Of a stretch of DNA of 64,000 nt, positions 722-59,138 are shown piece after piece. Below the pieces are notes generated by a model. It saw only the letters and a list, made by a program, of their open reading frames with translations. It searched no databases and was not told where the DNA came from. This DNA is from Desulfobacca sp. (lineage in GTDB: Bacteria > Desulfobacterota > Desulfobaccia > Desulfobaccales > Desulfobaccaceae). The stretch covers positions 97 through 64,096 of the forward strand of contig DYEV01000036.1 of the NCBI GenBank assembly GCA_020725545.1, given 5' to 3'. Numbering within the stretch: position 1 is the stretch's first letter; the number at the start of each line of letters is the position of its first letter. A program made the translations under genes and the position numbers.

Positions 722-1747
722 CTAATAGGCCAGCAGCACTTGGATGGCTTCGCCGGGGTTGCGGGCCAGAAGGTCATAGGCCGTGGCGGCCTGGAGGAAG
801 GGGATAGTGTGGGTAATCAGCGGCGTCAGGGTGAGGTTTTGGAGCAGCTGCCAGGCTTGGGCCAGAAGCCGGGGTTTGTTCCAGCGGCCGCTCAGGGCCG
901 GAGAGATGGTGCTCACCTGGCTGCTGAGGAGGCGGATGCGGCTGCGGTGGAAGACGCCGCCTAGATGCAGGCTGGCAGGCTTGCGGCCATACCAGGAACC
1001 GACGACGATGCGGCCGTGGAAACCGGTGATGGCGATGGCTTGATCCAGGGCGGTGGGGTGGCCGGAGACCTCATAAGACAGGTCAGCCCCGGGATAGTAA
1101 CAGCCCGCGGGCAACAGGGCCCGAAGCTTGGTCAGACACGAGGGATCGCCGGGATCCAGGCTGGCGGTGGCCCCCAGCGTCTCCGAGGCCAGGCGGCGGC
1201 GGGGGTAAAGGTCTAACGTCAAAAGCGCCGCCAAGGGTAGCCGCGCCAAGACGGCGGTCAAGAGCAGACCGATGATCCCCTGGCCAAAGACTACTACCTG
1301 CTCTCCCAACAGCGGCGCACCGTCCAACGCCAAAGTTACGGCCGTCTCCATATTGGGCAGGAGGGCAGCCGCTTCCGGGCTGATTCCCGGCGGCACCGGG
1401 TGCAGCTCGTCGAGAGCGGCCACGAAATGACTCTCGTGGGGATGGAAGGCAAAGACCAGGCGGTCCTGCCAGGCAGGAGGCACCTCAGGGCCGGCGGCTA
1501 TCACCTGCCCCACTGCGGCATAGCCATACTTCAGGGGATATCGAAAGGTCCCGGCCAAGGCCAGGATGGTGGCATCCACGGGTATCTCCGTGGGAAACAG
1601 GTTATTATAGATCAAGAGCTCGGTGCCCGGACTGATGGCGGAAACCAGTGTTTGCACCAGGACCTGCCCGGGGCCAGGTAGCGGCAGGGGTTCTTCTCGG
1701 ACCACCGCCTGTCCCGGACCGTCAAAGTATAAGGCCTGTCGCAGCAT
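722..1747 (-). CDS. medium-chain dehydrogenase/reductase (zinc-type alcohol dehydrogenase-like) oxidoreductase
   Basis: 341-aa ORF with a GroES-like N-terminus (GQVLVQTLVSAISPGTELL) and a Rossmann motif (VVVFGQGIIGLL). Its ATG abuts the stop of the upstream RibD-C-like gene. Confidence 0.7.
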   Translation of the reverse strand: MLRQALYFDGPGQAVVREEPLPLPGPGQVLVQTLVSAISPGTELLIYNNLFPTEIPVDATILALAGTFRYPLKYGYAAVGQVIAAGPEVPPAWQDRLVFAFHPHESHFVAALDELHPVPPGISPEAAALLPNMETAVTLALDGAPLLGEQVVVFGQGIIGLLLTAVLARLPLAALLTLDLYPRRRLASETLGATASLDPGDPSCLTKLRALLPAGCYYPGADLSYEVSGHPTALDQAIAITGFHGRIVVGSWYGRKPASLHLGGVFHRSRIRLLSSQVSTISPALSGRWNKPRLLAQAWQLLQNLTLTPLITHTIPFLQAATAYDLLARNPGEAIQVLLAY

Positions 1748-2467
1748 TTAATCCTGCCAATCCGGTCGCCCCCGCACCACCAGGTCAACGCCGATCTGTT
1801 GATAGACAACCTGGGTCAGGCGAGGCAAGCCATTGGAGCGGGGCAAGTGCTGGACGTCGAGCACCCGGACGCCGCCCACCAAAACCGGGGCGATGGTGAC
1901 AATGAGCTGATCCACCGCACGACTGCTAAGAAAACTGGTAATGACTTGGGCGCCGCCCTCCACCATGAGACTGTGGATGCCCTTCTCCCGCAGCATCGTG
2001 AGCAGCGCCGGGAGATCAATGCCACCGTTGCGGGCCGCCGGCAGGCGAAAAACCGTGGCGCCAGCCTCCTCCAAAGTCCGCTGCCGCGTTGCCGCCGCCG
2101 TGGTGCCGGTGATAATCCAGGGAGAATGAGAGGGATGGCGGAGTAATTTGGCAAAAGGAGGAAAACGCAGGCGGCTGTCCAGGATCAACGGTTGGGGATT
2201 AGGGCCCTCTACCAGACGCACCGTCAGACTGGGGTCGTCGGCCAGGACCGTGCCGATGCCCACTAAAATGGCATCATGGGCGGCCCGCAGAGCATGGGTC
2301 ATGGTCTGGGATTCCCGGCAGCTGAGGGCCAGAGGGTGCCCGGGCCGCGCCGCGATGGCGCCGTCCAGACTCTGGGCATACGTGAGCGTCACATAAGGAC
2401 GGCCTGTCTGTTCAGCAGAAGCCGCCGCCTTGGCAGCTAATGAGGTCGCCTCTTCCAGAATTGCCAT
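1748..2467 (-). CDS. RibD C-terminal-domain reductase (diaminohydroxyphosphoribosylaminopyrimidine reductase-like)
   Basis: Start re-picked to the internal ATG at 2467 (MAILEEATS...). The sequence PYVTLTYAQSLDGAIA...HDAILVGIGTVLADDPSLTVR...MVEGGAQVITSFL is typical of RibD_C. The upstream 76 codons of the track ORF look non-coding. Confidence 0.75.
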   Translation of the reverse strand: MAILEEATSLAAKAAASAEQTGRPYVTLTYAQSLDGAIAARPGHPLALSCRESQTMTHALRAAHDAILVGIGTVLADDPSLTVRLVEGPNPQPLILDSRLRFPPFAKLLRHPSHSPWIITGTTAAATRQRTLEEAGATVFRLPAARNGGIDLPALLTMLREKGIHSLMVEGGAQVITSFLSSRAVDQLIVTIAPVLVGGVRVLDVQHLPRSNGLPRLTQVVYQQIGVDLVVRGRPDWQD

Positions 2468-2810
2468 GGTGCTGCTCCCTATGAAACGCCGACCGCGGCA
2501 CGATCCGCCTGCCAGGCGCCAGAGGCAGTGGGCGCCCGGCCGGTCCCGCCAGGTTCCGGGCCCGCAAGCAGCCGCAGCAGTAATGCAACCTAACAAGCCA
2601 GGAGGCGGCCCAAACGCCTTAGCTTTTTGACCGATGGCCATCATGATATAATAAAATATATACCCTGACAAGATGGGGCAAAGCACCACGGCCACCGAAA
2701 TAATTTGCTTCGGACCGCCGGATGCTTACCTTTTGGTTGTTCAAGGAAAAGATGGTAATAACCTGGCCGCGGCTCAGCCGCAGGGTGCAGCCTAATCTCG
2801 ATAAGGTATT

Positions 2811-4187
2811 ATGAAAACTCTTTTATCTCGAAAAACTTTCGTTTGGCGGATCATTCTGCCGGTCGTGGCCGTATTGGTGTTAGGTGGCCTGCTCTGGTTC
2901 TGGTGGGCCAGAGACAACGGCGCGGACACTTTCCGTCTGGCCACGGTGAGCCGGGGCGATCTGGAGGTGACGGTCAGCGCCACCGGCACCGTCCAACCCG
3001 AAGAATTAGTGGATGTGGGTGCCCAGGTAGCCGGCAAGATCGTCGCCTTCGGCCTGGATGTGGACGGCAAGTCGGTGGATTATGGTTCGGTGGTCAAGGC
3101 CGGCATGATCCTGGCCCGCATTGATGACGCCATTTACAGCGCCGAGGTCTCCCAGGCCACGGCGCAGTTGGCCCAGGCCCGGGCCAATGTGCAGCGGGCC
3201 CAGGCCGATCTGGGGCAGCTGAAGGCCAAACTCTTCCAAGCCGAAAACGATTGGGGCCGGGCCAAACAATTGGGTCCCTCCGAGGCTTTGTCGCAGAGTG
3301 ATTTTGACGCTGCCAAATCGGCCTATGAGGTGGCCCGGGCCAATCTTAGCGTCGGGGAGGCGGCCCTGCGCCAGGCCAAAGAAGCGGTGGCCCAGGCCGA
3401 GGCCACCCTGCGCAAGGCCAAACAGAATCTGGACTATACGACGATCCGCTCGCCGGTGGACGGCGTCATCATTGACCGCCGGGTGAATATCGGCCAGACG
3501 GTGGTGGCCAGCCTCAATGCCCCCAGCCTCTTCCTCATCGCCAAGGATCTGAAGCGCCTGCAGATTTGGGTGCCGGTGAACGAAGCCGATATCGGCAACA
3601 TCCAGGTGGGCCAGCCCGTTTCCTTTACCGTGGACGCTTTTCCACAGGATACCTTTGTGGGCCAGGTGGGCAAGATCCGCCTGAACGCCACCATGACCCA
3701 GAATGTGGTCACCTATACGGTGGAGGTGACCTTTGACAACTCTGACGGCCGGCTGATCCCTTACCTGACGGCCAATGTTAAGTTCCTGCTGGACACCCAC
3801 CGGGATGTGCTCCTGGTGCCCAATGCCGCCTTGCGTTGGAAGCCCCAGCCGGAACAGATTGGCGCCGCCTGGCGTAATCAGCCAAAAAGCAGCCAACCGA
3901 GTGGCGGCCATGGTGCCGTAGCCGGCACCTATAGCTCGGCCGCCGCCAAAGACCTGAAAAAAACCCGGGAACAAGGGACCATCTGGGTGCCGACCGGGGG
4001 CTCGGTGCGGCCGGTGACGGTCCAGGTCGGCGCCAGTGACGGCAATTTGACCGAGATCAAAGGAACGGAGATTTCTGAAGGCCTGCAAGTAGTTGTAGCC
4101 AGCGAACCAGGGGAGGGCGGGTTTACCTCGGTTTCCAGTCCTTTTACGCCCAAACTCTTCAAAGACAAACGTCGGCCGCAACACTAA
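2811..4187 (+). CDS. macA: efflux periplasmic adaptor (membrane fusion protein, MacA/HlyD family)
   Basis: 458 aa with an N-terminal TM helix, a coiled-coil hairpin (AQLAQARANVQRAQADL...) and lipoyl/beta-barrel motifs. It lies directly upstream of a MacB-type gene. Confidence 0.85.
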   Translation: MKTLLSRKTFVWRIILPVVAVLVLGGLLWFWWARDNGADTFRLATVSRGDLEVTVSATGTVQPEELVDVGAQVAGKIVAFGLDVDGKSVDYGSVVKAGMILARIDDAIYSAEVSQATAQLAQARANVQRAQADLGQLKAKLFQAENDWGRAKQLGPSEALSQSDFDAAKSAYEVARANLSVGEAALRQAKEAVAQAEATLRKAKQNLDYTTIRSPVDGVIIDRRVNIGQTVVASLNAPSLFLIAKDLKRLQIWVPVNEADIGNIQVGQPVSFTVDAFPQDTFVGQVGKIRLNATMTQNVVTYTVEVTFDNSDGRLIPYLTANVKFLLDTHRDVLLVPNAALRWKPQPEQIGAAWRNQPKSSQPSGGHGAVAGTYSSAAAKDLKKTREQGTIWVPTGGSVRPVTVQVGASDGNLTEIKGTEISEGLQVVVASEPGEGGFTSVSSPFTPKLFKDKRRPQH

Positions 4188-4226
4188 GAGGCGGGGGCCA
4201 GCAGTTGAGGCTGCGGTCGGATACCC

Positions 4227-6347
4227 ATGAAACTCTTAGAATTACGTGATATTTATAAGACCTACCAATTGGGCGAGATCCAAGTCCCGGTCCTAAAAGG
4301 GATCTCCTTGGATGTTGCCCAAGGGGAATTCGTCGCCCTCATGGGCACCTCCGGCTCTGGCAAGACCACCCTGATGAACATCTTGGGATGTCTGGATCGG
4401 CCTTCTTCTGGCCAATATTGGCTGGATGGCCAGGAAGTCTCTACCCTGTCGGCGGATGAACGGGCCCAACTGCGCAATCAGAAGCTGGGATTTGTCTTTC
4501 AAACTTTTAACCTCCTGCCCCGCACCAGCGCCCTGGAAAATGTCCTCATGCCGCTGTCTTACAACGGCATGCACCTGGCCGAGGACGATGCCCTGGCCAA
4601 GGCCCGATCTTTACTGCAGCGGGTGGGACTGGGAGAACGGCTCGACTATGAGCCCTCCCAACTGTCCGGCGGCCAGCAGCAGCGGGTGGCCATCGCCCGG
4701 GCCCTCGTCAACAATCCCGCCGTCCTGCTGGCCGATGAACCCACCGGCAACCTGGACGCCCAGACCACCGAAGAGGTCCTGGAGATCTTCCGTCGTCTCA
4801 ATGAGGAAGGGGTAACCATTATCCTGGTGACCCACGACGAGGCGGTGGCCAAAGTAGCCAAGCGGGTCATCCGCATTCATGACGGCCGGATTGCTGCCGA
4901 CGACACCACGCCGAACCCGGAGCCTCGGTCCGAAGAGGTGGCTGCCGCGCCCCTGCAAGGGAGATACTGGGGTTTGGCCCAGCTCAAATGGTTGTTGCGC
5001 ACCAGTTTCCATGGTCTGCGCCGCAATATCCTGCGGGCGGCCCTGACGGCCCTGGGCATTATTATCGGCGTCGCCGCCGTCATCGCCATGATGGAAATCG
5101 GCCGGGGGTCGGCCACGGCCATTAAACGCACCATCGCCAGCATGGGGGCCGACAACCTGCTGATTTTGCCGGGTACGGCCGCCAGCGGCGGCATCAGTTT
5201 CGGCATCGGCACCGCCGTCACCCTGACGCCCCAGGATGCCGAAGCTATCCTCAAAGATATTCCTGGCGTCCGGGCCGTGGCGCCGGTGGTCCGGGCTCGG
5301 ATTCAGGTTGTTTATGGCAACCGCAACTGGGTGCCCATCTATATCTATGGCACCACGCCGGAGTTTCTCGACGTGCGCCAATGGCCCTTGACCGCCGGAG
5401 AAATGTTCACCGAGCAGGATGTGCGCAACGCCAGCAAGGTCTGTCTGGTGGGCCAGCGTCTGGTCCGAGAGCTTTTCGCCGGGGAAGACCCCATTAATAA
5501 AGAGGTGCGGCTGAACAATATCCCTTTCAAGGTCATCGGTGTCCTCAGCGCCAAGGGGGCCAATATGATCGGGGTCGATCAGGACGACATCCTCCTGGCG
5601 CCTTGGACCACCTTGCGCTACCGGGTCACCCGTGCGGCTCTGACCAACGTCAATCAGAGCGCCACTACCTCAAGCACCACCTCTCAGGTGAACACCTTGA
5701 ATAAACTGTATCCCACCGACAAACTCAAACTCTATCCGGAGCAGTCGGCCTCTCAGGCTGCCAACAATCCGCTGCCGGTGCGTTTCACCAACATCGATCA
5801 GATCATGGTGGCAGCCCGCTCCCCCCAGGATATCCCTGAGGCCATTGAGCAGATCACCGCGCTTCTTAGGGAGCGGCACCGGATCAAACCCGATGAGCCG
5901 GAAGATTTCCAGATCCGCAATATGACCGAAATGACCTCGGCCTTTACCTCCACTGCCAACCTCATGACCAAGCTGCTCCTGGCCGTGGCTTTGATTTCCC
6001 TCATCGTCGGCGGCGTCGGCATCATGAACATCATGCTGGTCTCCGTCACGGAGCGCACCCGGGAGATCGGTCTGCGTCTGGCCGTGGGGGCCTGGCGCCG
6101 GGACATCCTCCAGCAATTCCTCACCGAGGCCGTCCTCCTCTGCTTCTGTGGCGGCCTCCTGGGCATCGCCATCGGCCGGGGCATCTCGGTGCTCATCCGC
6201 CAGGTCCTCAACTGGCCCACCGAACTATCCCTCGGGGCCATCGCCGTCTCGTTTATCGTCTCGGTGGCCGTGGGCATTATTTTCGGCTTCTACCCGGCCT
6301 GGAAGGCGTCAAGGCTTGATCCCATTCAGGCCCTGCGGTATGAATAG
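4227..6347 (+). CDS. macB: MacB-type fused ABC ATPase-permease
   Basis: Walker A (GTSGSGKTT), signature ([15 protein letters not shown]) and Walker B (LLADEPTGNLD) are followed by a periplasmic domain and an FtsX-type 4-TM C-terminus ending DPIQALRYE. Confidence 0.9.
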   Translation: MKLLELRDIYKTYQLGEIQVPVLKGISLDVAQGEFVALMGTSGSGKTTLMNILGCLDRPSSGQYWLDGQEVSTLSADERAQLRNQKLGFVFQTFNLLPRTSALENVLMPLSYNGMHLAEDDALAKARSLLQRVGLGERLDYEPSQLSGGQQQRVAIARALVNNPAVLLADEPTGNLDAQTTEEVLEIFRRLNEEGVTIILVTHDEAVAKVAKRVIRIHDGRIAADDTTPNPEPRSEEVAAAPLQGRYWGLAQLKWLLRTSFHGLRRNILRAALTALGIIIGVAAVIAMMEIGRGSATAIKRTIASMGADNLLILPGTAASGGISFGIGTAVTLTPQDAEAILKDIPGVRAVAPVVRARIQVVYGNRNWVPIYIYGTTPEFLDVRQWPLTAGEMFTEQDVRNASKVCLVGQRLVRELFAGEDPINKEVRLNNIPFKVIGVLSAKGANMIGVDQDDILLAPWTTLRYRVTRAALTNVNQSATTSSTTSQVNTLNKLYPTDKLKLYPEQSASQAANNPLPVRFTNIDQIMVAARSPQDIPEAIEQITALLRERHRIKPDEPEDFQIRNMTEMTSAFTSTANLMTKLLLAVALISLIVGGVGIMNIMLVSVTERTREIGLRLAVGAWRRDILQQFLTEAVLLCFCGGLLGIAIGRGISVLIRQVLNWPTELSLGAIAVSFIVSVAVGIIFGFYPAWKASRLDPIQALRYE

Positions 6348-6496
6348 CAGGTCTCCATTCTTTAGTATCTTGGCACGCCCGCTATCCTGAGGAGTCCGAA
6401 AGGGGTAACACCAATTTGGTCAAAAGGCCAATGGATATTATTCTGGTTCCCAAGATCCGGCTGGGAAACGAGCTGCATCGAGTAAAGGGAAATACT

Positions 6497-7948
6497 ATGT
6501 CGGCCTGGACGACATTGTTACTTTTCTGTTTTTTTATGGTGGGCTGCGCCGTCGGACCTAACTTCGTGCCACCCCGCACCCAGGTGCCCGAGACCTGGGA
6601 GGCCCAGGAGGTGGTGGGGCCGGCCCAGGAGAGCAAGACCACCTTGGCACCGGCCGATCTGGCAGGCTGGTGGCGCTCTTTTCAGGACCCTACCCTCACT
6701 TCCTTGGTGGAGACGGCCCTTGCTACCAACCTGGACCTGCGCCAAGCCCAGGCCCGCATCCGTCAGGCCCGGGCCGCCCGGGGCATCGCCGGCGCCGGAC
6801 TCTACCCCCAGGTGGACGCCCAGGCCCTGTTTGAACGGAGCAGCGGTTCCAGCGCCCTGGTCGGTTCTCAGGGAACCACCGCCGTCGCCACCGGCCCGGC
6901 TTTCCGGGATCTCTTCCAAGTGGGGCTCGATGCCTCCTGGGAACTGGATATCTTCGGCGGCACCCGCCGCACTGTCGAGGCGGCCACTGCCGACCTCCAG
7001 GCCGCCGTCGAGGACCGCCGGGCCGTCCTGGTCTCCCTGGCCGGCGAAGTCGGGACCACTTACCTCAGCCTCAGGGGTTTGCAGCAGCAGTTGGCCATCG
7101 CCCGGCAAAACCTGGCAGCCCAGGAAAAGACGGCCCGCATCATCCGCAAACGCTATGAAGCCGGCTTCGCCAGCCGTTTGGACGTGGAAAACGCCGAGGC
7201 CCAGGTCAATACCACCGCCGCCCAGATCCCCCTCCTCGAGTCCAATATCCGGACCGCCATCTACAGCCTCAGCGTCCTCCTGGGGCAGCCGCCGGGCATG
7301 TTGGCGTCGGTCCTCCTCCGACCCCACCCCATCCCCACCACGCCCCCCCAGATTCCCGTGGGCCTCCCTTCAGACCTGGTCCGCCGGCGGCCTGACATCC
7401 GCCGGGCCGAAGCCCAGTTGCATGCCGCTACCGCCCGCATCGGCGTCGCCGTGGCCGACCTCTTCCCCCGCTTCTTCCTCACCGGCAGCGCCGGCTTCTC
7501 GGCCCGGGACGTCTCCCTCCTGGGCAGTGACAAAAGCCGCTTCTGGTCCTTCGGCCCCAGCCTCAGCTGGCCGGTTTTTGCCGGCGGCCGCATCCGCTGG
7601 AACATCGAACTCCAGGATGCCGTCCAGGAACAGGCCCTCCTGGCTTACCAGCAAACCGTCCTCACCGCCCTCAAAGACGTGGAGACCGCCCTGGTGGCCT
7701 ATGCCAAAGAACAGGAGCACCGCCAATCCCTCATCCAGGCCGTGGCCAATAACCGCCAGGCCGTGGACCTGGCCATGAAGCTCTACCTGGCCGGCCGCAG
7801 CGATTTCCTCAACGTCCTCACCGCCCAGCGCTCCCTTTTCGTCACAGAGGAGGCCCTGGCACAGTCAACCCGCAACTTGGCCGTCAACCTCGTCGCCCTC
7901 TATAAAGCCCTGGGCGGCGGCTGGAAAGACCTGCCGCCTGGCTCTTGA
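6497..7948 (+). CDS. outer membrane efflux lipoprotein (NodT/TolC family OMF)
   Basis: Start re-picked to ATG 6497 (MSAWTTLLLFCFFMVGC, a lipobox with Cys), preceded by AAAGGGA. Both halves carry the typical OMF repeated coiled-coil and beta motifs. It completes a MacA-MacB-OMF operon. Confidence 0.85.
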   Translation: MSAWTTLLLFCFFMVGCAVGPNFVPPRTQVPETWEAQEVVGPAQESKTTLAPADLAGWWRSFQDPTLTSLVETALATNLDLRQAQARIRQARAARGIAGAGLYPQVDAQALFERSSGSSALVGSQGTTAVATGPAFRDLFQVGLDASWELDIFGGTRRTVEAATADLQAAVEDRRAVLVSLAGEVGTTYLSLRGLQQQLAIARQNLAAQEKTARIIRKRYEAGFASRLDVENAEAQVNTTAAQIPLLESNIRTAIYSLSVLLGQPPGMLASVLLRPHPIPTTPPQIPVGLPSDLVRRRPDIRRAEAQLHAATARIGVAVADLFPRFFLTGSAGFSARDVSLLGSDKSRFWSFGPSLSWPVFAGGRIRWNIELQDAVQEQALLAYQQTVLTALKDVETALVAYAKEQEHRQSLIQAVANNRQAVDLAMKLYLAGRSDFLNVLTAQRSLFVTEEALAQSTRNLAVNLVALYKALGGGWKDLPPGS

Positions 7949-50206: not shown

Positions 50207-51352
50207 TTAGGCACCCCCGAACAGAACTTCTTCGGCCGCCTTGACACCCGCGCCGTAGGGGGCTTTATAGCCCAATTCATTCAGGACCACTTCCAGGGCG
50301 GCGATGATCATAATGATGTCAAAGTTGCCGATGTAGCCCATGTGGGCGATGCGGAAGATCTTGCCCTTGGCATCGGCCTGGCCGCCGGCGATCATAATGC
50401 CATATTTTTCCCGGAGCAGCTTGACCACATCCTGGCCATTGACCCCGGCCGGCGCCAACACCGCGGTCAGGGCGTCGGAAGCACCTTCTTTGCTGAACAG
50501 TTCCAACCCCAAAGCCTGGACCGCGGCCTTGGTAGCCTTGGACATGAGCTGATGTTCGGCAAAAATCTTTTCCAGACCGGTCTCTTTGAAATACCGCAGC
50601 ACGTCCCGCAAACCCATGACCAGGGAGACGGCCGAAGTGTAAGCACCGGTGTTCTTCTGGATATTCTTTAATTCCTTGGAGAAATCAAAATAAAATCTGC
50701 TGCATTTGGCGGTCTTGGTGAACTCCCAGGCCTTGTCGCTGAGGCAGGCAAAGGCCAGACCCGGCGGCAGCATCATGGCCTTCTGGGAGCCGGCCACCAT
50801 GATATCAATGCCCCATGCATCCATGGGCAGCTCAAAGGCTCCCAGGGCGCTGATGGCGTCGACGATGAGCAGCGTGCCGGGCAGATTCCGGGTGAGGGCG
50901 GCAATCTCTTTGACCGGATGGCAGACGCCGGTGGAGGTTTCATGGGCCTGGATGCAGACCGCTTTGATATGGGGGTTGGCCTTCAGTCTGGCGGCAATCT
51001 CGTCAACCTTGACCGCCCGGCCCCATTCCACGTCGATGGCTTCAAAATTGACGCCATAGGCCTGGCAGATTTCCCCCCAACGCTCGCCGAACTTGCCACC
51101 CCGGACCACCAGGGCCGTATCGCCGGGGCTCATGGTGTTGGTGATGGAACCTTCCATGGCACCCGTTCCGGTGGAGGCCAAGATCAGGACTTCCTGTTTG
51201 GTCTGGAACAGATACTTGAGACCTTCACGACATTCGGCCACCACTTCGGCAAACTGCGGAGAACGGTGGTGAATGATGGGGGTGGCCATGGCCAGCAACG
51301 TTTCGGGGGGGACGGGCGTCGGCCCGGGTGCCAAAAGATAATGCTTCTTCAT
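50207..51352 (-). CDS. class V PLP aminotransferase (phosphoserine / serine-glyoxylate aminotransferase type)
   Basis: LLAPGPTPVP...TGTGAMEGS...VDAISALG...AGSQKAMM (PLP lysine). Its position immediately upstream of serA suggests a serine-pathway role. Confidence 0.82.
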   Translation of the reverse strand: MKKHYLLAPGPTPVPPETLLAMATPIIHHRSPQFAEVVAECREGLKYLFQTKQEVLILASTGTGAMEGSITNTMSPGDTALVVRGGKFGERWGEICQAYGVNFEAIDVEWGRAVKVDEIAARLKANPHIKAVCIQAHETSTGVCHPVKEIAALTRNLPGTLLIVDAISALGAFELPMDAWGIDIMVAGSQKAMMLPPGLAFACLSDKAWEFTKTAKCSRFYFDFSKELKNIQKNTGAYTSAVSLVMGLRDVLRYFKETGLEKIFAEHQLMSKATKAAVQALGLELFSKEGASDALTAVLAPAGVNGQDVVKLLREKYGIMIAGGQADAKGKIFRIAHMGYIGNFDIIMIIAALEVVLNELGYKAPYGAGVKAAEEVLFGGA

Positions 51353-51627
51353 AATCCTCTTTTTCCTTTAACAAACGTATTTTACCCCTGCCGCGACAGC
51401 AGGGTAAACCTCTACATCATGGGAAAGTAAAAAAAGATTTTATGTTTCTCAAAGGCTCTTGTCAACCGTCTTGTGAAAATAAATGCATGAACGCCCGCAG
51501 TCGGCAAGATGAGCGGTTGCGGCGACTCAGGTGGCGGAAAAAGTTTTCGAGAGGTTCGGGGCACTGGGAAAAGGGTGGGTCGCCACGTCATGGGGCGATA
51601 ATCTTTGGGTCAACAGAAAAGCCGCGG

Positions 51628-52506
51628 TTATTTCGGGGGCAGTTGTTCGGCCAGGACCTGTAGGCCTAGAGGCAACGGGCTGGTAGTATCCAGCCGCAGG
51701 ATCGCTTGCAGAAATTTGGTATCCAGGCGTTCCCGGCTGTCTTCAGTGCGGAAATCCCGCTGCCCCATGTAAGGGGCGATCTCGATGACCTCACCGGTGC
51801 CAACTTCCTGGAGGCCTTCCACGGTCTTGACGGTAAAACGGTCTCCCAGGTACAGGCGGTTGAACCAAAAAGCTTCCACGAAAAGCCGCACCTGATGTTC
51901 CAGGCGGCCGATGACGATTCGGCGGAAATCTTCAGGGGTGAGCTGCTCACCCAGGCGGACATCGAATTTATAGACCTTCCCGGCAATGGGGGCCCGCAGG
52001 GTGAGTTTGGCCAATTCCACCCGGCGCAATTCCACTTCGGCCCGGGCCGAGGCGATCTGTTGTTCCTCGAGCTTGGCCTGTAACCGGACCTGACTATAGT
52101 CGAATTCCGGGATGGCCTTTTTCTGTAATAATAATTCTTTGCGGCGCAGATCATCCCGGGTCAGGTCCAGGCGCCGGTTGGCTTCCTCCAGGCGGGAGGT
52201 GGCCAGGCGCAGGGCCTGCTGTTCAATATCATCATCCTGGCGGCAGAGAGGTTGGTCTTGGGCCACCCGTTCTCCCTCCCGCACATAAATGGCCACCACC
52301 CGCCGGGCCAGCAAGGGACCGACGAATACTTCCCGCTCAAAGGGTTCCACCAGGCCATAGACCCTAAAAGGTGCGTCATCTAAAGAAACCGGTGGCGGCG
52401 GCAGCGGTGGCTGGGAGGAGCGGCGCAGCGAGATGTAGGTATAATAAGACGCCCCGACAACGGCCAGGAGCATCAGGAGTAAGACTAGAACGGTGCGAAG
52501 TCTCAT
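51628..52506 (-). CDS. short HlyD/DevB-like membrane fusion protein
   Basis: 292 aa with a TM anchor, lipoyl-like segments flanking a coiled-coil (LRLATSRLEEANRRLDL...IASARAEVELRRVELAKL). Its ATG overlaps the ATPase stop (ATGA). Confidence 0.7.
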   Translation of the reverse strand: MRLRTVLVLLLMLLAVVGASYYTYISLRRSSQPPLPPPPVSLDDAPFRVYGLVEPFEREVFVGPLLARRVVAIYVREGERVAQDQPLCRQDDDIEQQALRLATSRLEEANRRLDLTRDDLRRKELLLQKKAIPEFDYSQVRLQAKLEEQQIASARAEVELRRVELAKLTLRAPIAGKVYKFDVRLGEQLTPEDFRRIVIGRLEHQVRLFVEAFWFNRLYLGDRFTVKTVEGLQEVGTGEVIEIAPYMGQRDFRTEDSRERLDTKFLQAILRLDTTSPLPLGLQVLAEQLPPK

Positions 52507-53219
52507 GAAGCCACATCCAGACCCTGGGGTTTGCCCGCGGCAGTATCTGCGACCACAGTGCCATTCTCCATTTTTATCAAGCGGTCGGCAAAGGGAAAGA
52601 CCCGGGCATCGTGGGAGACCACTACCACCAGGCGCTTTTCTGCCACGGCAATCTTCTTTAAGATGCCCATGACCACCTGGCCGTTCTCGGCGTCCAGGGC
52701 TGAGGTCGGTTCATCGCAGAGGATGATGGCGGGATCTTTGATCAAGGCCCGGGCGATGGAAACCCGCTGTTTCATGCCGCCGGAGATCATCTGCGGTGGC
52801 AGGCGGGCCGTATCGGCCAAACCCAAGCTGGTAAGAAGCTCGGCTACCCGCTGCCGTACCACTCCCGGGATGTGGGCGCCTTGAATGCCCAGGGCCAGCA
52901 GGATGTTATCCTGGACGCTCAAGCCGTCGATGAGCATGGGTTGCTGGAAGACGAAACCATAGGTGGCCAAACGCATCTTGGACGCGACATCGTCGGCCAG
53001 GCCGGTGACTTCCCGCCCGGAGAGCCACATGCGGCCTTCCGAGGGCCGCAGCACTAAGCCGATGATGGAGAGGAGGGTGGTCTTGCCGCTGCCGGAAGGG
53101 CCGGCCAACACCGTCAGCTCTCCTGGTTTGAAGGTGAGATTGATGGGGAACAAGACCCGGCGCAGTTGGCGGCCGTCGTAAAAATCCCGGGCAATGTTTT
53201 CCAGACGCAGATCAGCCAC
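52503..53219 (-). CDS. ABC transporter ATP-binding protein (DevA/MacB-like)
   Basis: Walker [10 protein letters not shown], signature ISGGMKQRVSIARAL and Walker B ILCDEPTSALD. Confidence 0.9.
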   Translation of the reverse strand: MADLRLENIARDFYDGRQLRRVLFPINLTFKPGELTVLAGPSGSGKTTLLSIIGLVLRPSEGRMWLSGREVTGLADDVASKMRLATYGFVFQQPMLIDGLSVQDNILLALGIQGAHIPGVVRQRVAELLTSLGLADTARLPPQMISGGMKQRVSIARALIKDPAIILCDEPTSALDAENGQVVMGILKKIAVAEKRLVVVVSHDARVFPFADRLIKMENGTVVADTAAGKPQGLDVAS

Positions 53220-53237
53220 AGATACCCTTTGCCAGAC

Positions 53238-54359
53238 TTAATGAAACACCGAGGCCGGGTCGGCCTGCAGGGCTTTGCGCAAGGCCACCAGGGACCCCAA
53301 GAGACTCACCAATAAAGTAATGCCAGCCAGCAGCGGTGGCACAACGGCCGGCAAAAAACTGGGGATATCAGACCCTCGCGTTGCGTTCAACAAGGCCGCC
53401 AGGAGGAATAATCCCAGAAAGATACCGATACCGCCGACGATGACCGCCTGACAGAGGACGATGACAGCAATATCCCGCCGCCGGCCGCCGAGAGCCCGCA
53501 TTACCGCAAAATCCCGGGTACGCTGGAGGACGCTGGCGTACATGGTCAAGGTAATAATGACAATGCCAATAAGCACGGCAATGGTGGTGGAAAAGCCGAA
53601 GCTGCCGCCGATGCCGGTATTGGTGAGATAGTAGAGTTGGGTCCGCCGGGATAACTCGGCGGTCGTTAACACGGAGCACTCCGGCAGCAGGGCCCGGAGC
53701 CGGGCTAAGGCGGTCTGCTGGTCTGCTCTCGGTTGGAAGCCCACCAGGATGGCGGAATACCGGCCCGGCGGCGTCTGGGCCATATCCCGGACCTGGTCCA
53801 GGGGCAGGAAGACCAGCGTCCCTTGGAAAGCCCGAGCTCCTTCGGTGATGGCGGTCAGGCGGACCCGCTTGCCGTTGATTTCGGTGAGGCTGCCCAGAGC
53901 CGGGTGCGCGAACTTTTTTAGATCCAGGCGGTCTACCGCGGCGCTTTCCAGGTCCAACAAGGCTTGGACCCGGCCCTGGGCCAAGGCCCATGGTCCTCCC
54001 TGGAGGCGAGGGCGGTGCAGCCCCACCAGACGGACGGCCTCAAAACTATCGTCTGCGGTGCGCATCAGGCCGTTGCCAAACAGGATCGGTGCAGCCCAGG
54101 CGACCTCCGGCAGTCCCATGACCCGCTCCAGATACTGCCCGGGGATCAGGTTGACGGCATCCACATTGCGGACCGAGGCGCTGGTAATCCAGACATCGGC
54201 GCCGCTATGGTCCACCAGCACAGACATATACTGGAGGAGGCCGAAGAGGATGGATAACTGTTGGCCCACCAGAAAAACGATGGCCACCACCCCCAATAAG
54301 GCCCCGGCGGTAGCGGAGCGGTCATGCCGGAGCAGGCGCCAGGCCACGGTGCTACGCAT
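53238..54359 (-). CDS. ABC transporter permease (FtsX/DevC-like)
   Basis: Start re-picked to ATG 54359 (MRSTVAWRLLRHDR...), which overlaps the upstream gene's TAG in ATGCGTAG. It has a periplasmic domain and a C-terminal FtsX bundle. Confidence 0.8.
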   Translation of the reverse strand: MRSTVAWRLLRHDRSATAGALLGVVAIVFLVGQQLSILFGLLQYMSVLVDHSGADVWITSASVRNVDAVNLIPGQYLERVMGLPEVAWAAPILFGNGLMRTADDSFEAVRLVGLHRPRLQGGPWALAQGRVQALLDLESAAVDRLDLKKFAHPALGSLTEINGKRVRLTAITEGARAFQGTLVFLPLDQVRDMAQTPPGRYSAILVGFQPRADQQTALARLRALLPECSVLTTAELSRRTQLYYLTNTGIGGSFGFSTTIAVLIGIVIITLTMYASVLQRTRDFAVMRALGGRRRDIAVIVLCQAVIVGGIGIFLGLFLLAALLNATRGSDIPSFLPAVVPPLLAGITLLVSLLGSLVALRKALQADPASVFH

Positions 54360-55398
54360 GCGTTCCCCCCAAAGCCCGGCTATGGGCCTGGGCAAAATCC
54401 TGAACCACCTCTATGCCGGCCGCGGCCAAGACCTGCTGGGCGGCGATGGTCCCACGGCCGCCCATGAAGATGGTCGGCGCAGGTTGGCAGCTCTGCACCT
54501 GCGCCGCCGCGGCCAGGGCTTCTTCCAGGCGAGAGAGCATGGTCAAAGAAAGAAAGACCACATCGGGTTTGAAGGCCGTCACGGCCGCGGCAATCTGCGC
54601 CCGCGGCAGGCTGCGCCCCAGGGACCAGACCCGCCAACCCCGCAGCTCCAGATACATGCCCAGGGCCAGAGGCAGCACTTGATGTTCTTCGCCGGGGACG
54701 CAGGTGACCAGGGCCGAGCGGCCCACGGGCGGTGCCGCCGCAAACCAGGCCGGCAGACTAGCCAGCAGCCGCAGGACCGTCTCCGTGGCCAGGTGTTCCT
54801 GATAGATGGCCAGCTCGTTCCGCTCCCAGCGCCGACCGATCTCCGCCATGGCCGGCAACAGCTTAGCCAGGATAATATCATAAGCCAACTGGCCCAGGGA
54901 CAGGTCGGCCCGGATCTCCCCCAAAGCGCCCCGCCAGTCGCCAGCAATCAGCAGCTCCACCAATTGGGCCACGGCCGGCGTCGGCAGGGTGTGGAGCCGT
55001 TCTTGCCCCTGGGCGACGATGGTCGCCAACTCGGCCCGCAGCTCTTGCAAGGGCTGGGCTAAAATATTACATTCCGGTGGTTTTAAGATGCCCTGCAGGG
55101 CTACCAGCCAACTGTCCACGAGCAGGGCCAAAGCCTCCTGCCCCGGCCCCCGGGAGGCCAACATTGAGGCATACCAGGAGGCCTCCTGCCGCAGGGCCGC
55201 GGTGAGATGGTAGCGCAAGACCACCCGCAGCAGCCGTCCGAATTCATTGACATAATCCTGGATCTCCTCCCCAAGCGCGGCCTCAGGAGGCTGTGGTCGG
55301 TATTGCCAGACCACGGCCAGGCGGCGGTGCACCAACGCCAAAAGCTGGTCATAGTGCTCCACAAAAAGGGTATAAGCCGGCGAAGGGGGGTGGATCAA
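54352..55398 (-). CDS. stand-alone cobalamin-binding protein (B12-binding_2 helical bundle plus B12-binding Rossmann domain; no DNA-binding domain)
   Basis: EIGRRWERNELAIYQEHLATE (W-x9-EH as in CarH-type sensors), then VTCVPGEEHQVLPLALG (E-x-H lower-ligand motif), LSLTM and FMGGRG. The N-terminal ~130 aa is an unassigned helical domain. The track start is a TTG codon, so the start is uncertain. Confidence 0.72.
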   Translation of the reverse strand: MIHPPSPAYTLFVEHYDQLLALVHRRLAVVWQYRPQPPEAALGEEIQDYVNEFGRLLRVVLRYHLTAALRQEASWYASMLASRGPGQEALALLVDSWLVALQGILKPPECNILAQPLQELRAELATIVAQGQERLHTLPTPAVAQLVELLIAGDWRGALGEIRADLSLGQLAYDIILAKLLPAMAEIGRRWERNELAIYQEHLATETVLRLLASLPAWFAAAPPVGRSALVTCVPGEEHQVLPLALGMYLELRGWRVWSLGRSLPRAQIAAAVTAFKPDVVFLSLTMLSRLEEALAAAAQVQSCQPAPTIFMGGRGTIAAQQVLAAAGIEVVQDFAQAHSRALGGTHA

Positions 55399-55466
55399 GG
55401 TGCGCCCCAGGGGCTCTGGTCATCGATCTGCCCAAAAATTAAATTATAACCAGCAATAGGCCTTCA

Positions 55467-58400
55467 TCACAAAAAATACAGGGCCAGCCGCACCAGAAAA
55501 CGACGAGCCGGGTAGAATTCCGGGTTGCGGCCGGGTTCCAGGGCGTAGTAGGCCCGGCGGTTTAGGAGGTTGTCCAGTTCAAAGGAGACCAGGCCACGTT
55601 TTTTGGATAACTCTTTGCCCAGCAACAGATTAACCTGAGGGTAGAAGCTGTCGGCCCAATTTTTCAGCTTCTGATAGACCCAAAAGGTCCCAACCCGGCC
55701 CAGCCAGCCATTTTTGTGGAGATAGGCCAGCCGCAGAAAAGGGTCCACTTCCCAATAAGCGCTGACCGTCTCTGCGAGGGCAAGGTCCGGCACCACCCGC
55801 TTGACCAGGGCTCCGAAAGTCAATCCCCAGGCCGGGCTCAGGATGCGGTTCAGGGTAAGGGAAGCTTGATAGCGTTGCCAATGCGTGGAGAGACGGAAGG
55901 GCAGATTATTGGGGTCATTGGCCAGGTTGGGGGTGGCAACCCGGATGGCGTCAAAGCGGGCCACAGTGAAGGTGCGGCTGTTCCATTGGGCTTCCCAGGC
56001 CGCCCCGGCCTGGCGGACCTCGCTGCCGTTGTCGCTGTCAATCAGCCAGGGAATGCCGGCAATCTGGGAGGAGAGCAGGAGGGGTTGCCAGAGGTAGTGG
56101 CAGTTCAGGTGGCGTTGCAAGGCCAGGCGCAGGGTGTGTTGGCCATTGAGCTGGACACTGAGACCCAGACGCGGGCTCCACAGAGATGCATAAATGGCGT
56201 CATGAAAGCCGGGGCGGGGGCTTTTGGCATATTCTTTTAACAGCCCCAGTTCCAGGAGGACCTTCTGACTCAGACGCCAATAATCTATCAGATAAATGGT
56301 GGCAGAGCGCTCCGGCGGCTGGTTGGCAAACGGGAACTCCTGAGAAAACAGGCCGGGAATAGTGACGGTGAGTAATTGCTTATAGTTAAAATTTGATTCG
56401 AACAGATCCAATCCGGCGATCAAGGTGTGCTGGCCCAGTACCAGGTGTTGCTGGACCTGGACATTATCAAACTCCCGGTCAAGATTCAAGGCCAGGTTAA
56501 GGTTGGCTACAAAGGGCAAAATGGTGAGGGAGGAATCCCGGACCAGTCGCAGATCAAAGGGTTTGTGGGCATAATAGGCAATCAAGGTGGCCTGTGGGTT
56601 GAAGTGATGCACAGAGGAGAACTCCCCGGACTTGAAGCGCAGGAAGGTCCGCCGGTTTGGGTCAGGGATATAGGCGGGATTATTTAATTCATTGCGGTCC
56701 CCCGCTTCGGTATCACCATATTGAAAAAAGCCCGTGAAGGTGCCCTTGACCGTCGGCTCCCATTTGACGGCCAGTTCCACATTCTGACCCACGGAACCGC
56801 CGTTGACCTGACGATAACCTCGTTCATCGGTGCGGTTGCCCAGCACATAAAAAGCCAGACCGGGGAGGCCGCCGTAGCCCAAGGCGGTGTAATCCTGGAT
56901 GGTACGGGAGCCTTCCCAGGCGCCTCCCCCCGCCTGGGTCACCAGCCGGATATAAGGCATCTCAAAAAGAGGGGTGTAGTCAAAGCCCAACCCCAGGTCC
57001 GGGGTATGAATGGTATAGGGTCGGATACGGATATTGTTGAAGGTATTCTGGTTGGCCAGGGACAAAACCCGAAACAACAACGCTTCAGCATTCTGGGCTG
57101 CCAGCAGTTGGCCGGATTGGCCATTGATGGACGAGGTATCATAGCTGTTCAACAGGAAAAGGTGGGCCGAACTGTTGAGAGGGTTGAAACCCACCGCGGT
57201 CACCGCTTTACTGGTGGCCCACTCCTGCAAGCCCAATTGATTATACGACCGGGCCAGGTTGTAGTTGCGCACCGCCAGGTCCCGGTTCAGGCCCAGGCGG
57301 GTGCGGAAGACGGCCCGGTTGTCGTTGAGGGCGATGGAGCAGTTGATCTCCGCAATGGCCTCCCCCGGGCGGTTCAGGTCGGCCAGGGCGATGCCTTTAT
57401 AGAGATGCGGGGTGGGGTCGTTGGGGTCCAAGGTTTTAGCATAATCATAAACATCCAGCGCCTTGCCAAAGGCCCGGACTTCATAGAGGGCTTTGCCCAA
57501 CTCTGCCTGATAGAGGGCCACATGGGGTTCGAGCAAAGTGGCCTTGAGCATTTCGGTCAGGCCGGCATCCATCCGGCGGTAGCGGAAGTGATAAATGCCC
57601 AGGCCGAGATGGGGCTCGCCCAGCCCGGGGCTGGCCTCGCTGGCCCGGGAGAAGAACCCGAGGGCACCAGGAAAATCGCGGAAGGCCAGGCGGACAAAGC
57701 CGGCCATGGCCAGGACCTCGCCGTTGTGGGGGGCCAATGCCATGGCCTTCTCCACCGCCCGGCGGGCCCGATCCAGGTAATCGGAGCCTAACCAGATCTT
57801 GGCCAAATAGAGATACGGTTCCAAAAAGCGGGGATCACTTTGCAAGGCCGCTTGGAACTGCCGGATGGCCGTGGGGAGATCGAACCAGGCGATGTTGACC
57901 AAACCCGCGGCCAGGAGGGCCTGGGCTGAGTCGGGCGCCAGCGACAGGGTCTCCTGGGCTTGCCGGCGCGCCTCATCCTTGCGATTCTGGATCAAGAAGA
58001 GCTGTACCAGTAAGGAACGGGGTAGGATAAAAGCCGATTGCCGGTCCACGGCCTGCTCCAAGAGACGCTGCCCTTCCTGAGGCCGACCCATTAGGATATG
58101 GAAATAACCCTGCATGGTCAGGAGCAAGGGGGTCTCTCGGCCCAGCGGCGCTGCTTCCTGAATGGTGGCATAGGCACCGCCCAGATCGTTCAGCCGGTAG
58201 CGTGCCAAGGCCAGGCCGACCAGACTGGCGTCATTGCCCGGCTGGACCCGGGCGAACAGATTCCTGGCTGCCGCCGGTCGGTTGTCCTGGAGGTTGAGCC
58301 AGCCCAGGAGGGTCAAGGCGGCGTGGTTGGCCGGATCACGCTCGAGCGCCGCCGCGGCCGTTTCCCGGGCTGCCCCTAACCGCCCCTGATTATAATCATC

Positions 58401-59138
58401 GGCCGCGGCCAATAGGGTTTGGTTAGCACCGGCCAGGCCTTGGAGGTTGATGGGGATATCCCGGAAGCTGAAGATGCCGGGAAAATACAGGGACCATTGC
58501 ACTGCATCAGCCGGCCGCAGGACCAATCGTTTGGTGGGCGGCTGGCCCGGTCGGGCCACCCCCTCCTCCCCCGGCCCCAACACCACCTGGCCCTGGGGAT
58601 TGGCAAACTGCACCTGCCCTTCCACCATGGTCAAGACACTGTCTGCCGCCGCCCCGACCCGGAGGTTGAATTCGGTGCCGCGGATAGCCGCAGTCACCGC
58701 CGGCGTCTGCAACTCGAAGCGAAACTTGTCATTTTTATTGCGCAGCCAGACTTCACCCTGGGAAACGCCATACAGACTTTCCACCGTCTGGCGGAGGGCG
58801 GCGGGCACCACCTCCCCCAGGCGCAGACGCGGCGAGGCTGCCACCTGGCGGATCTCAAAAACGGTATTTTCATTGAGCTTGATCTGGCTTTCGTCCAAAA
58901 ACAAGATGGCCGCGCCGGAAGCGGGGCCCGTGGTAATGACGTCGCCGACGCCGAGCATCTGGTTGACCTGGGCTGGCTGCCCCGAGCCGGAGCCTGCCGT
59001 CTGAACCATTACTTGACCGAAAACATTGAGGAGCTGCCCGGCCGGAGGAGCGGCATGGAGGGGCGGAGGACTGGCCAGGAGGGCAAAAAAACTTATGGTT
59101 AGGATCAAGATGCTGATAACCGGGCGCAAGCGTGGCAT
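55467..59138 (-). CDS. 1223-aa secreted protein: FecR-like domain, TPR array and a putative C-terminal outer-membrane beta-barrel
   Basis: Signal peptide MPRLRPVISILILTISFFALLASPPPLHA. A FecR-like segment follows (GQVMVQTAGS...GDVITTGPASGAAILFLDESQIKLNENTVFEI...AAIRGTEFN). There are about 450 aa of TPR-like repeats. The last ~500 aa is rich in alternating aromatic/polar strands and ends LVRLALYFL. Confidence 0.7.
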   Translation of the reverse strand: MPRLRPVISILILTISFFALLASPPPLHAAPPAGQLLNVFGQVMVQTAGSGSGQPAQVNQMLGVGDVITTGPASGAAILFLDESQIKLNENTVFEIRQVAASPRLRLGEVVPAALRQTVESLYGVSQGEVWLRNKNDKFRFELQTPAVTAAIRGTEFNLRVGAAADSVLTMVEGQVQFANPQGQVVLGPGEEGVARPGQPPTKRLVLRPADAVQWSLYFPGIFSFRDIPINLQGLAGANQTLLAAADDYNQGRLGAARETAAAALERDPANHAALTLLGWLNLQDNRPAAARNLFARVQPGNDASLVGLALARYRLNDLGGAYATIQEAAPLGRETPLLLTMQGYFHILMGRPQEGQRLLEQAVDRQSAFILPRSLLVQLFLIQNRKDEARRQAQETLSLAPDSAQALLAAGLVNIAWFDLPTAIRQFQAALQSDPRFLEPYLYLAKIWLGSDYLDRARRAVEKAMALAPHNGEVLAMAGFVRLAFRDFPGALGFFSRASEASPGLGEPHLGLGIYHFRYRRMDAGLTEMLKATLLEPHVALYQAELGKALYEVRAFGKALDVYDYAKTLDPNDPTPHLYKGIALADLNRPGEAIAEINCSIALNDNRAVFRTRLGLNRDLAVRNYNLARSYNQLGLQEWATSKAVTAVGFNPLNSSAHLFLLNSYDTSSINGQSGQLLAAQNAEALLFRVLSLANQNTFNNIRIRPYTIHTPDLGLGFDYTPLFEMPYIRLVTQAGGGAWEGSRTIQDYTALGYGGLPGLAFYVLGNRTDERGYRQVNGGSVGQNVELAVKWEPTVKGTFTGFFQYGDTEAGDRNELNNPAYIPDPNRRTFLRFKSGEFSSVHHFNPQATLIAYYAHKPFDLRLVRDSSLTILPFVANLNLALNLDREFDNVQVQQHLVLGQHTLIAGLDLFESNFNYKQLLTVTIPGLFSQEFPFANQPPERSATIYLIDYWRLSQKVLLELGLLKEYAKSPRPGFHDAIYASLWSPRLGLSVQLNGQHTLRLALQRHLNCHYLWQPLLLSSQIAGIPWLIDSDNGSEVRQAGAAWEAQWNSRTFTVARFDAIRVATPNLANDPNNLPFRLSTHWQRYQASLTLNRILSPAWGLTFGALVKRVVPDLALAETVSAYWEVDPFLRLAYLHKNGWLGRVGTFWVYQKLKNWADSFYPQVNLLLGKELSKKRGLVSFELDNLLNRRAYYALEPGRNPEFYPARRFLVRLALYFL

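Follow-up and report, generated by a model that had tools for sequence, protein, structure and literature searches.

A globin-like, putatively cobalamin-binding protein encoded in a conserved cassette with a MacB-type ABC pump

Why should the gene for a CarH-like cobalamin-binding protein overlap the first gene of an ATP-binding cassette (ABC) pump? The question is raised by a window of 64,000 nt from Desulfobacca sp. contig DYEV01000036.1 (GCA_020725545.1), the whole stretch of DNA analysed here, to whose positions all coordinates refer unless a locus is named. On its minus strand, genes for a cobalamin-binding protein (the B12 protein), a permease, an ATPase and an adaptor follow one another. 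An earlier, sequence-only reading had joined these four and the giant gene upstream of them into one envelope-spanning machine. We found instead that the four genes form a cassette to which the giant gene does not belong. On balance, we favour the interpretation that they encode a type VII ABC pump together with a dedicated cytoplasmic sensor subunit, built of a globin-like domain and a cobalamin-binding domain (CBD), that gates the pump by cobalamin state and possibly by light. The cassette consists of the following features.

54352–55398, minus strand: B12 protein, cassette gene 1; 348 aa, TTG start
ATG at 54359, end at 53238, minus strand: permease, cassette gene 2; 373 aa
52503–53219, minus strand: ATPase, cassette gene 3; 238 aa, GTG start
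51628–52506, minus strand: adaptor, cassette gene 4; 292 aa
54352–54359, minus strand: start/stop overlap ATGCGTAG, 8 nt; the permease begins within the final codons and stop of the B12 gene

Conservation and coupling of the four genes

The order B12 protein, permease, ATPase, adaptor was found in every locus of the B12 family with enough downstream DNA (~30 loci). A metagenome scan that started from the permease placed the B12 gene directly upstream in 63 of the 64 loci with at least 1050 bp upstream of the permease. The ATPase was present in 59/60 and the adaptor in 54/55 of the permease-side loci with enough downstream DNA. The proposal of the sequence-only reading that an orphan CarH-like module is functionally linked to an ABC exporter is thus supported by conservation from both sides. 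A B12 gene is missing despite ample upstream DNA from just one permease-clade locus (L122, Ga0078972_1000347, match at 4001–5005), which is probably a decayed copy, because its permease match is truncated, starting from residue 39, and its ATPase match is fragmentary.

Cassette hosts belong to Desulfobacterota, Planctomycetota, Verrucomicrobiota, Lentisphaerae, Bacteroidota, Acidobacteriota, Synergistota, Riflebacteria/Ozemobacteraceae and Candidatus Vecturithrix, and both order and coupling hold in at least nine bacterial phyla. No typical monoderm phylum was seen among the named genome records with the cassette. The family is rare; a set of 1.84 billion representatives contained ~100 clusters of it (50% identity). 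A cultured host, Desulfobulbus alkaliphilus DSM 24258, makes experiments feasible.

In the window, the 8-nt overlap between the first two genes is followed by an 18-nt spacer from the permease TAA to the ATPase GTG and by an ATGA overlap of ATPase and adaptor (52503–52506). Across loci, the −8 overlap, of the form (A/G)TGCGTAG, recurred in 74/90 main-clade and 7/7 sister-clade loci (81/97), permease–ATPase spacing was 12–18 nt, and ATGA overlaps were frequent. A conserved 8-nt overlap and tight spacing of this kind are typical of subunits of one complex.

Identity in B12-side loci was 64–91% for the permease, 64–88% for the ATPase and 41–92% for the adaptor. The permease was always 373 aa long, without indels and with 81% mean column identity across phyla, whereas the B12 protein (~35–60% identity) and the adaptor (~40–70%) were far more divergent outside the closest relatives. 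Since the permease is rigid while its partners diverge, the similarity of the cassettes reflects constraint and not only recent transfer.

An all-against-all BLAST of ORFs from 35 loci recovered only the four genes and their shadow ORFs as recurrent families; no regulator, outer-membrane factor (OMF), haem oxygenase or methyltransferase partner recurred near the cassette in these loci. The flanks vary, with toxin–antitoxin genes in one locus (L003) and a group II intron in another (L001), and variable regions are the usual setting of the cassette. Its G+C content is slightly higher than that of its surroundings in the window. The variable flanks, the lack of any other recurring gene and this difference in G+C together fit a self-contained, horizontally mobile module. 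In L001, which is from a Thermoguttaceae genome, the intron (1320–3273) was matched by RF02005 and RF00029, carries a reverse-transcriptase ORF and is ~7 kb away from the cassette on its upstream side.

A globin-like domain joined to a CarH-type cobalamin module

The B12 protein of the window is an exact match to database protein P0001. Pfam assigned B12-binding_2 (PF02607) to residues 144–213 (45.9 bits) and B12-binding (PF02310) to residues 228–330 (47 bits). The CBD thus defined (residues ~141–348) comprises a four-helix cap with W191-x9-E201-H202 and a Rossmann domain with H239 in an E-x-H motif. An AF2 model of the full protein had a predicted local distance difference test score (pLDDT) of 91.5, and its CBD part matched CarH and photocobilin 8j2w in Foldseek. 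The best PDB sequence matches were the photocobilin SasPcob (8j2w/8j2x), a Chloracidobacterium MerR-family CBD (8jbs) and CarH (5c8d); AerR (7te2) was also among the matches, and methionine synthase and methyltransferase corrinoid proteins ranked behind photocobilin and CarH. Neither a MerR domain nor any other DNA-binding domain was matched in Pfam or NCBIfam, and the NCBIfam CarH score was 48.7 bits against a cut-off of 400. The original description of a CarH-like module lacking a DNA-binding domain therefore holds.

Four CBD signatures, GxxW, EH, GxxH and GxxxP, have been termed 'light-responsive' (PMC11796333). Three of them are intact in the main clade, with G188xxW191, E201-H202 and G261xxxP265 present in 90/90 sequences; in the fourth, H239 is kept (87/90) and G236 varies (62/90). 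In a 28-sequence alignment, the lower-ligand His was shifted by one residue in two members. By analogy with CarH and the photocobilins, the CBD most likely binds adenosylcobalamin (AdoCbl) in the base-off/His-on state via H239, with W191, E201 and H202 around the upper ligand. No signal peptide or transmembrane segment was evident on reading the sequence; the protein should be cytoplasmic, and therefore would face the ATPase.

Automatic annotation names some members 'methanogenic corrinoid protein MtbC1', which would make the B12 protein a corrinoid protein of methyl transfer. These JGI names, weak NCBIfam MtgC/MtbC matches and the shared B12-binding fold are what such a role has in its favour. 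The NCBIfam score, however, is only 36 bits against a cut-off of 370. The Wx9EH motif, which is of CarH type, does not vary, CarH and photocobilin are the nearest structures, and no conserved methyltransferase partner is encoded nearby, so that we regard a methyl-transfer role as scarcely credible.

The sequence-only reading of the domains was incomplete, as it had missed a conserved globin-like domain in the first 140 residues. Modelled alone, residues 1–140 gave seven helices with a pLDDT of 90.4 (AF2). The best fold matches in Foldseek were allophycocyanin, the bilin-binding domain of ApcE and smURFP (TM-scores of 0.64–0.66, root-mean-square deviation ~2.9 Å over ~125 columns), followed by neuroglobin and the RsbR-N globin. 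Judged by its predicted fold, this region is a phycobiliprotein-like globin domain. It had no Pfam match and no PDB sequence match. A profile search with it across the 1.84 billion representatives returned 102 proteins, nearly all of the same architecture, and did not reach the photoglobins; with HMMER, residues 69–95 aligned with the SasPcob globin at a non-significant level. By these searches, the domain is a sequence family of its own, restricted to the globin–CBD cassette architecture.

Within this domain, E72 and W97 are invariant in the 90 main-clade sequences, and G54, L69, W75 and C110 are nearly so. C110 ends a KPPEC motif (residues 106–110; window ~55069–55083, minus strand) and is kept in 88/90 sequences, while K106 and P107 vary more. 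The motif is specific to the main clade; the sister clade has Ala or Ser at the position of Cys110. Possible functions of KPPEC110 are the attachment of a bilin, the ligation of cobalt after photolysis, and docking. An O2-dependent haem oxygenase seems doubtful in most hosts, which are apparently anaerobes. The helix that bears the CxQD motif in photoglobins seems to carry L69-x-x-E72 here, as judged by eye without a structural alignment.

The nearest known proteins in overall plan are the photoglobin-B12/photocobilin proteins, for which a globin plus CBD arrangement has been described (PMC8717448, PMC10979010). Photocobilins bind AdoCbl and biliverdin, and the standalone ones have been proposed to regulate partners by protein–protein contact (PMC10979010). 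SasPcob and its relatives share with the B12 protein a globin-like domain and a CarH-type CBD in a standalone protein of ~350 aa. In contrast to them, the cassette protein has its globin at the N-terminus, as a separate sequence family with KPPEC110 in the main clade; it occurs in diderm anaerobes and not mainly in Terrabacteria; and it has a fixed MacB-type pump partner. CarH/LitR proteins of Thermus, Myxococcus and Bacillus share the four-helix cap and Rossmann module, the W-x9-EH pocket and the His lower ligand, but carry a MerR DNA-binding domain where the cassette protein has its globin-like N-terminus. Their output is DNA, whereas the presumed output of the cassette protein is the ABC pump.

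A further relative, AerR/PpaA, likewise binds cobalamin as a standalone protein without a DNA-binding domain and acts via a partner (PMC9144470), and it raises the alternative that the B12 protein regulates expression through an unlinked DNA-binding partner and never touches the pump. The presence of AerR among the PDB matches is compatible with this, as is the position of the B12 gene at the head of its operon, which is common for autoregulators. The partner of AerR/PpaA is, however, the transcription factor CrtJ/PpsR, and these proteins have neither a globin domain nor any linkage to a transporter. The B12 protein itself has no DNA-binding domain, and no locus has a conserved DNA-binding neighbour. 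The 8-nt overlap, conserved across phyla, suggests stoichiometric co-production of sensor and permease, and the need for an unlinked partner would hinder a cassette that moves between phyla as a self-contained unit. We therefore consider an expression regulator of this type unlikely.

Sister-clade loci (L115–L123) bear on the role of the B12 protein. Their permeases are only ~51% identical, and the upstream globin-B12-like gene and the same 8-nt overlap are kept. Several members have E, D or S in place of the cobalt-ligand His and ER or AA in place of EH, with a concurrent loss of W75. In metagenome loci L115–L119, the genes upstream of the permease (at ~2700–4005) have lost the His, the EH or both. 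Class II LitR proteins, which are B12-independent (PMC9758184), offer a parallel, and by analogy the ligand-less forms would be B12-independent variants. Because the sister clade retains the protein and the overlap without the B12 ligands, the role of the B12 protein in the system is indicated to be structural or regulatory rather than the delivery of B12 as a substrate. The joint loss of W75 and the B12 ligands suggests that the globin domain may contact the corrin; in SasPcob, Trp296 contacts the corrin (PMC10979010).

The pump and its possible gating

Pfam recovered the domains that had been predicted for the window's proteins, with the HlyD assignment of the adaptor being weak. In the permease, FtsX (PF02687, 55.2 bits) and MacB_PCD (PF12704, 38.3 bits) were both above their cut-offs, in a four-transmembrane FtsX-type arrangement with the periplasmic MacB_PCD domain between the first and second transmembrane segments. 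Its PDB sequence matches were weak, the best being HrtB (7w78; E = 2e-6, FtsX region only), with MacB (5lil) also matched. The ATPase (ABC_tran, PF00005, 110.9 bits) resembles DevA, LolD and the nucleotide-binding domain of MacB. The adaptor scored 74.5 bits against the 94.9-bit cut-off of TIGR01730 (RND_mfp), with HlyD_3 and HlyD_D23 just below their cut-offs, and matched the MexJ and AcrA adaptors in the PDB. It is a putative membrane-anchored periplasmic membrane-fusion protein with a short coiled-coil hairpin, an assignment weaker than that of the ATPase. From their sequences, the three proteins would be classed as a MacB-superfamily (type VII) ABC pump. Its description as 'DevCAB-like' is loose, and it is not a DevBCA system, as all three NCBIfam Dev scores were far below the cut-offs (DevC 56.5 vs 290.35; DevA, TIGR02982, 188.2 vs 295.8; DevB 48.8 vs 129).

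The FtsX four-transmembrane permease with MacB_PCD, the ATPase and the membrane-fusion adaptor are shared with MacAB-TolC, DevBCA-HgdD, LolCDE and PvdRT. Unlike in MacB, the ATPase is a separate polypeptide; relative to all four systems, the cassette has the order permease–ATPase–adaptor and a short 292-aa adaptor, and it alone has an extra gene for a cytoplasmic cobalamin-binding subunit. The cassette parts are thus of known kinds, namely a CarH/photocobilin-type sensor and a MacB-superfamily pump with an adaptor.

No OEP/TolC gene was found in the cassette, or recurring within 4–10 kb of the other loci, in agreement with the earlier statement that the cluster lacks an OMF gene. That this absence calls for an explanation is a weak premise. 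MacAB and DevBCA normally rely on a TolC-type protein encoded elsewhere; neither the macAB genes of E. coli nor the devBCA genes of Anabaena include one for the outer-membrane partner, and the cassette resembles them in this. An OEP gene (PF02321, 195 bits) is moreover present elsewhere in the same window, at 6416–7948. It belongs to the separate MacAB set that had already been recognized there, a tripartite set at 2811–7948 on the plus strand that encodes MacA (458 aa, HlyD), MacB (706 aa, ABC_tran + MacB_PCD + FtsX) and OEP (510 aa). A TolC-type channel is therefore available in this genome and could be shared by other pumps.

In the mechanism that we favour, cobalamin, and possibly light, would change the conformation or oligomeric state of the sensor. 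This state would be passed by direct contact to the ATPase or to the cytoplasmic face of the permease, and the contact would switch ATP-driven mechanotransmission on or off. The pump would then expel a substrate from the periplasm or outer leaflet via an unlinked TolC-type channel. What that substrate may be is a matter of guesswork; there is a hint of a tetrapyrrole, in that the best, weak PDB match of the permease is the haem exporter HrtB (7w78).

Several points weigh against gating by a cobalamin sensor. The contact between sensor and pump is one that we infer, and we know of no MacB-type pumps with cytoplasmic sensor subunits of such a kind. Two apparent B12–FtsX fusions (P0091 and P0097) were rejected as artefacts of an internal deletion and a frameshifted read-through. 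The failure of sequence searches to join the N-terminal domain to the photoglobins also counts here. No cobalamin riboswitch was found in the window or near the cassette in nine loci, the search of Rfam families having detected only a tRNA and a group II intron, and no other B12-related gene was found near the cassette. Finally, most source habitats, according to record titles, are dark and anoxic (digesters, sediments, peat). Light is therefore doubtful as the natural cue, and AdoCbl availability or another cue may act instead.

A different role for the same genes would be corrinoid export, with the B12 protein as a cytoplasmic carrier and the pump expelling cobalamin, another cobamide or damaged corrinoid. 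The translational coupling of a B12-binding protein to an exporter would suit this role. MacB-family pumps do move tetrapyrroles: MacAB exports protoporphyrin, which we counted in favour of corrinoid export, and HrtBA, the best weak match of the permease, exports haem. In addition, no bacterial B12 exporter is known (PMC13440303). HrtBA (7w78; PMC9271180), which likewise has a MacB-family permease and handles a tetrapyrrole, is however a Gram-positive system without an adaptor or B12 protein, and its similarity is weak and confined to the transmembrane domain. Type VII pumps act on periplasmic or outer-leaflet rather than cytoplasmic substrates (PMC5985334; for HrtBA, PMC9271180), and the strict Wx9EH/GxxW signature is that of AdoCbl-sensing modules rather than carriers (PMC11796333). 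Sister-clade members keep the protein and lose the cobalt ligand, and neither cob/cbi genes nor riboswitches are linked to the cassette. These points make corrinoid export quite improbable, and we retain the cobalamin-gated pump as the preferred interpretation.

The sequence-only reading had not recognized the combination as a described system, and our search of the literature bears this out. The searchable literature does not describe translational coupling of an ABC pump to the gene of a cobalamin sensor, beyond one sentence of a photocobilin supplement, in which standalone photocobilins are said to be 'associated with ... transporters (e.g. ABC transporter)'.

So far, B12-based sensing is known to act on transcription (CarH, AerR) and, from 2024 onwards, on enzymes fused to or partnered with the sensor (photocobilins). 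If true, an obligate, coupled sensor–pump partnership would extend it to transport and would constitute a new type of cytoplasmic regulatory subunit for MacB-class ABC transporters. For synthetic biology, such a cassette might serve as an efflux module switched by green light or B12. The most novel possibility, though an improbable one, is corrinoid efflux; if true, it would make the cassette the first bacterial B12 exporter, with the globin-B12 protein sensing or presenting cobalamin. Nearly as novel, if true, would be direct gating of a transporter by a photoreceptor subunit based on B12, the first case of its kind, with efflux responding to green light or AdoCbl. The cassette also offers a concrete case in which to test the movement of tetrapyrroles or corrinoids in anaerobic communities, where no B12 exporter is known (PMC13440303).

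The giant FecR-TPR gene as an independent neighbour

Upstream of the cassette, the fifth gene completes the run of minus-strand ORFs from 59138 to 51628, whose coordinates were all borne out. Two features are relevant to its relationship with the cassette.

55467–59138, minus strand: giant gene; 1223 aa
55472..55443, minus strand: candidate cassette promoter TTGTGA-18-TATAAT, sigma-70-like, near-consensus; overlaps the giant stop codon

The giant protein is secreted, with a signal peptide, FecR (residues 66–177), a TPR array (244–608) and a C-terminal TonB-dependent-receptor-like beta-barrel region. The C-terminus of the window member had no match in Pfam and PDB sequence searches. Orthologues aligned over 99–100% of its length matched PF00593 above the cut-off at ~770–1018, and on that ground its C-terminal third is probably an outer-membrane barrel. 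No OEP (PF02321) match was obtained in the giant. The suggestion that this region is an outer-membrane candidate thus stands as far as a barrel by homology is concerned, but the barrel is of the TonB-dependent-receptor and not of the TolC/OEP type. The family has >270 full-length homologues of 1200–1290 aa in Desulfobacterota.

Could all five genes form one machine, gated by the B12 protein, in which the giant's barrel serves as the pump's outer-membrane partner? They lie side by side on one strand, and the spacer between giant and B12 gene, read directly, is only 68 nt and holds no terminator-like site; the giant is exported and its C-terminal region is barrel-like by homology. The junction is nevertheless the least operon-like of the four, because a near-consensus promoter-like site lies in this gap. 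The site scored 10/12 against the consensus, in a region that holds 8 such sites against 2.4 expected. Of the operon-like junctions originally proposed, the overlaps and spacings within the cassette were confirmed, and the one between giant and B12 gene was weakened by this site.

Three close genomes were compared. They share a backbone of PGM, a Cys-Met pyridoxal-phosphate (PLP) enzyme, a variable segment X, class-V aminotransferase, phosphoglycerate dehydrogenase, DUF1844, GHMP kinase and PRPP synthetase, with the following contents of X.

Window genome: giant and four-gene cassette
L005: cassette only; the end of the PLP gene abuts the B12 start; B12 protein 81% identical
L041: giant only, with the same flanks; giant 83% identical

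Giant and cassette each occur alone in one of two otherwise syntenic genomes, the cassette in L005 and the giant in L041. The two thus come and go independently, and the proposed conserved five-gene machine was not upheld. The giant is a chance neighbour and not part of the cassette system. About 110 other cassette loci lacked a giant homologue in the vicinity; within a range of 4–10 kb, none was found near the cassette in 7 B12-homologue loci, 33 GTDB species-representative loci and 80 metagenome loci. Distant members of the giant family instead adjoin or lie near CHASE2-domain guanylate/adenylate cyclases (L042, 11818–13827; L043, 14877–16877), which hints that the family may belong to an envelope signalling system of its own. 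Together with the receptor-type barrel, which is not an OEP/TolC duct, and the promoter-like site, these findings leave a five-gene machine highly improbable.

Alignment of the three syntenic genomes revealed no repeats or other insertion scars at the indel boundaries. The region upstream of the aminotransferase is kept in all three, and divergence starts just 5' of it. This region, a conserved leader of the class-V aminotransferase and phosphoglycerate dehydrogenase genes, contains a GC-rich stem-loop, CCCTGC...GCAGGG (~51384–51405, minus strand), 5' of the Aminotran_5 gene (50207–51352). A strong promoter-like sequence, TTGACA-17-TAAAAT (51465..51437), lies upstream of the stem-loop, of which the stem is invariant and the loop variable across the three related genomes.

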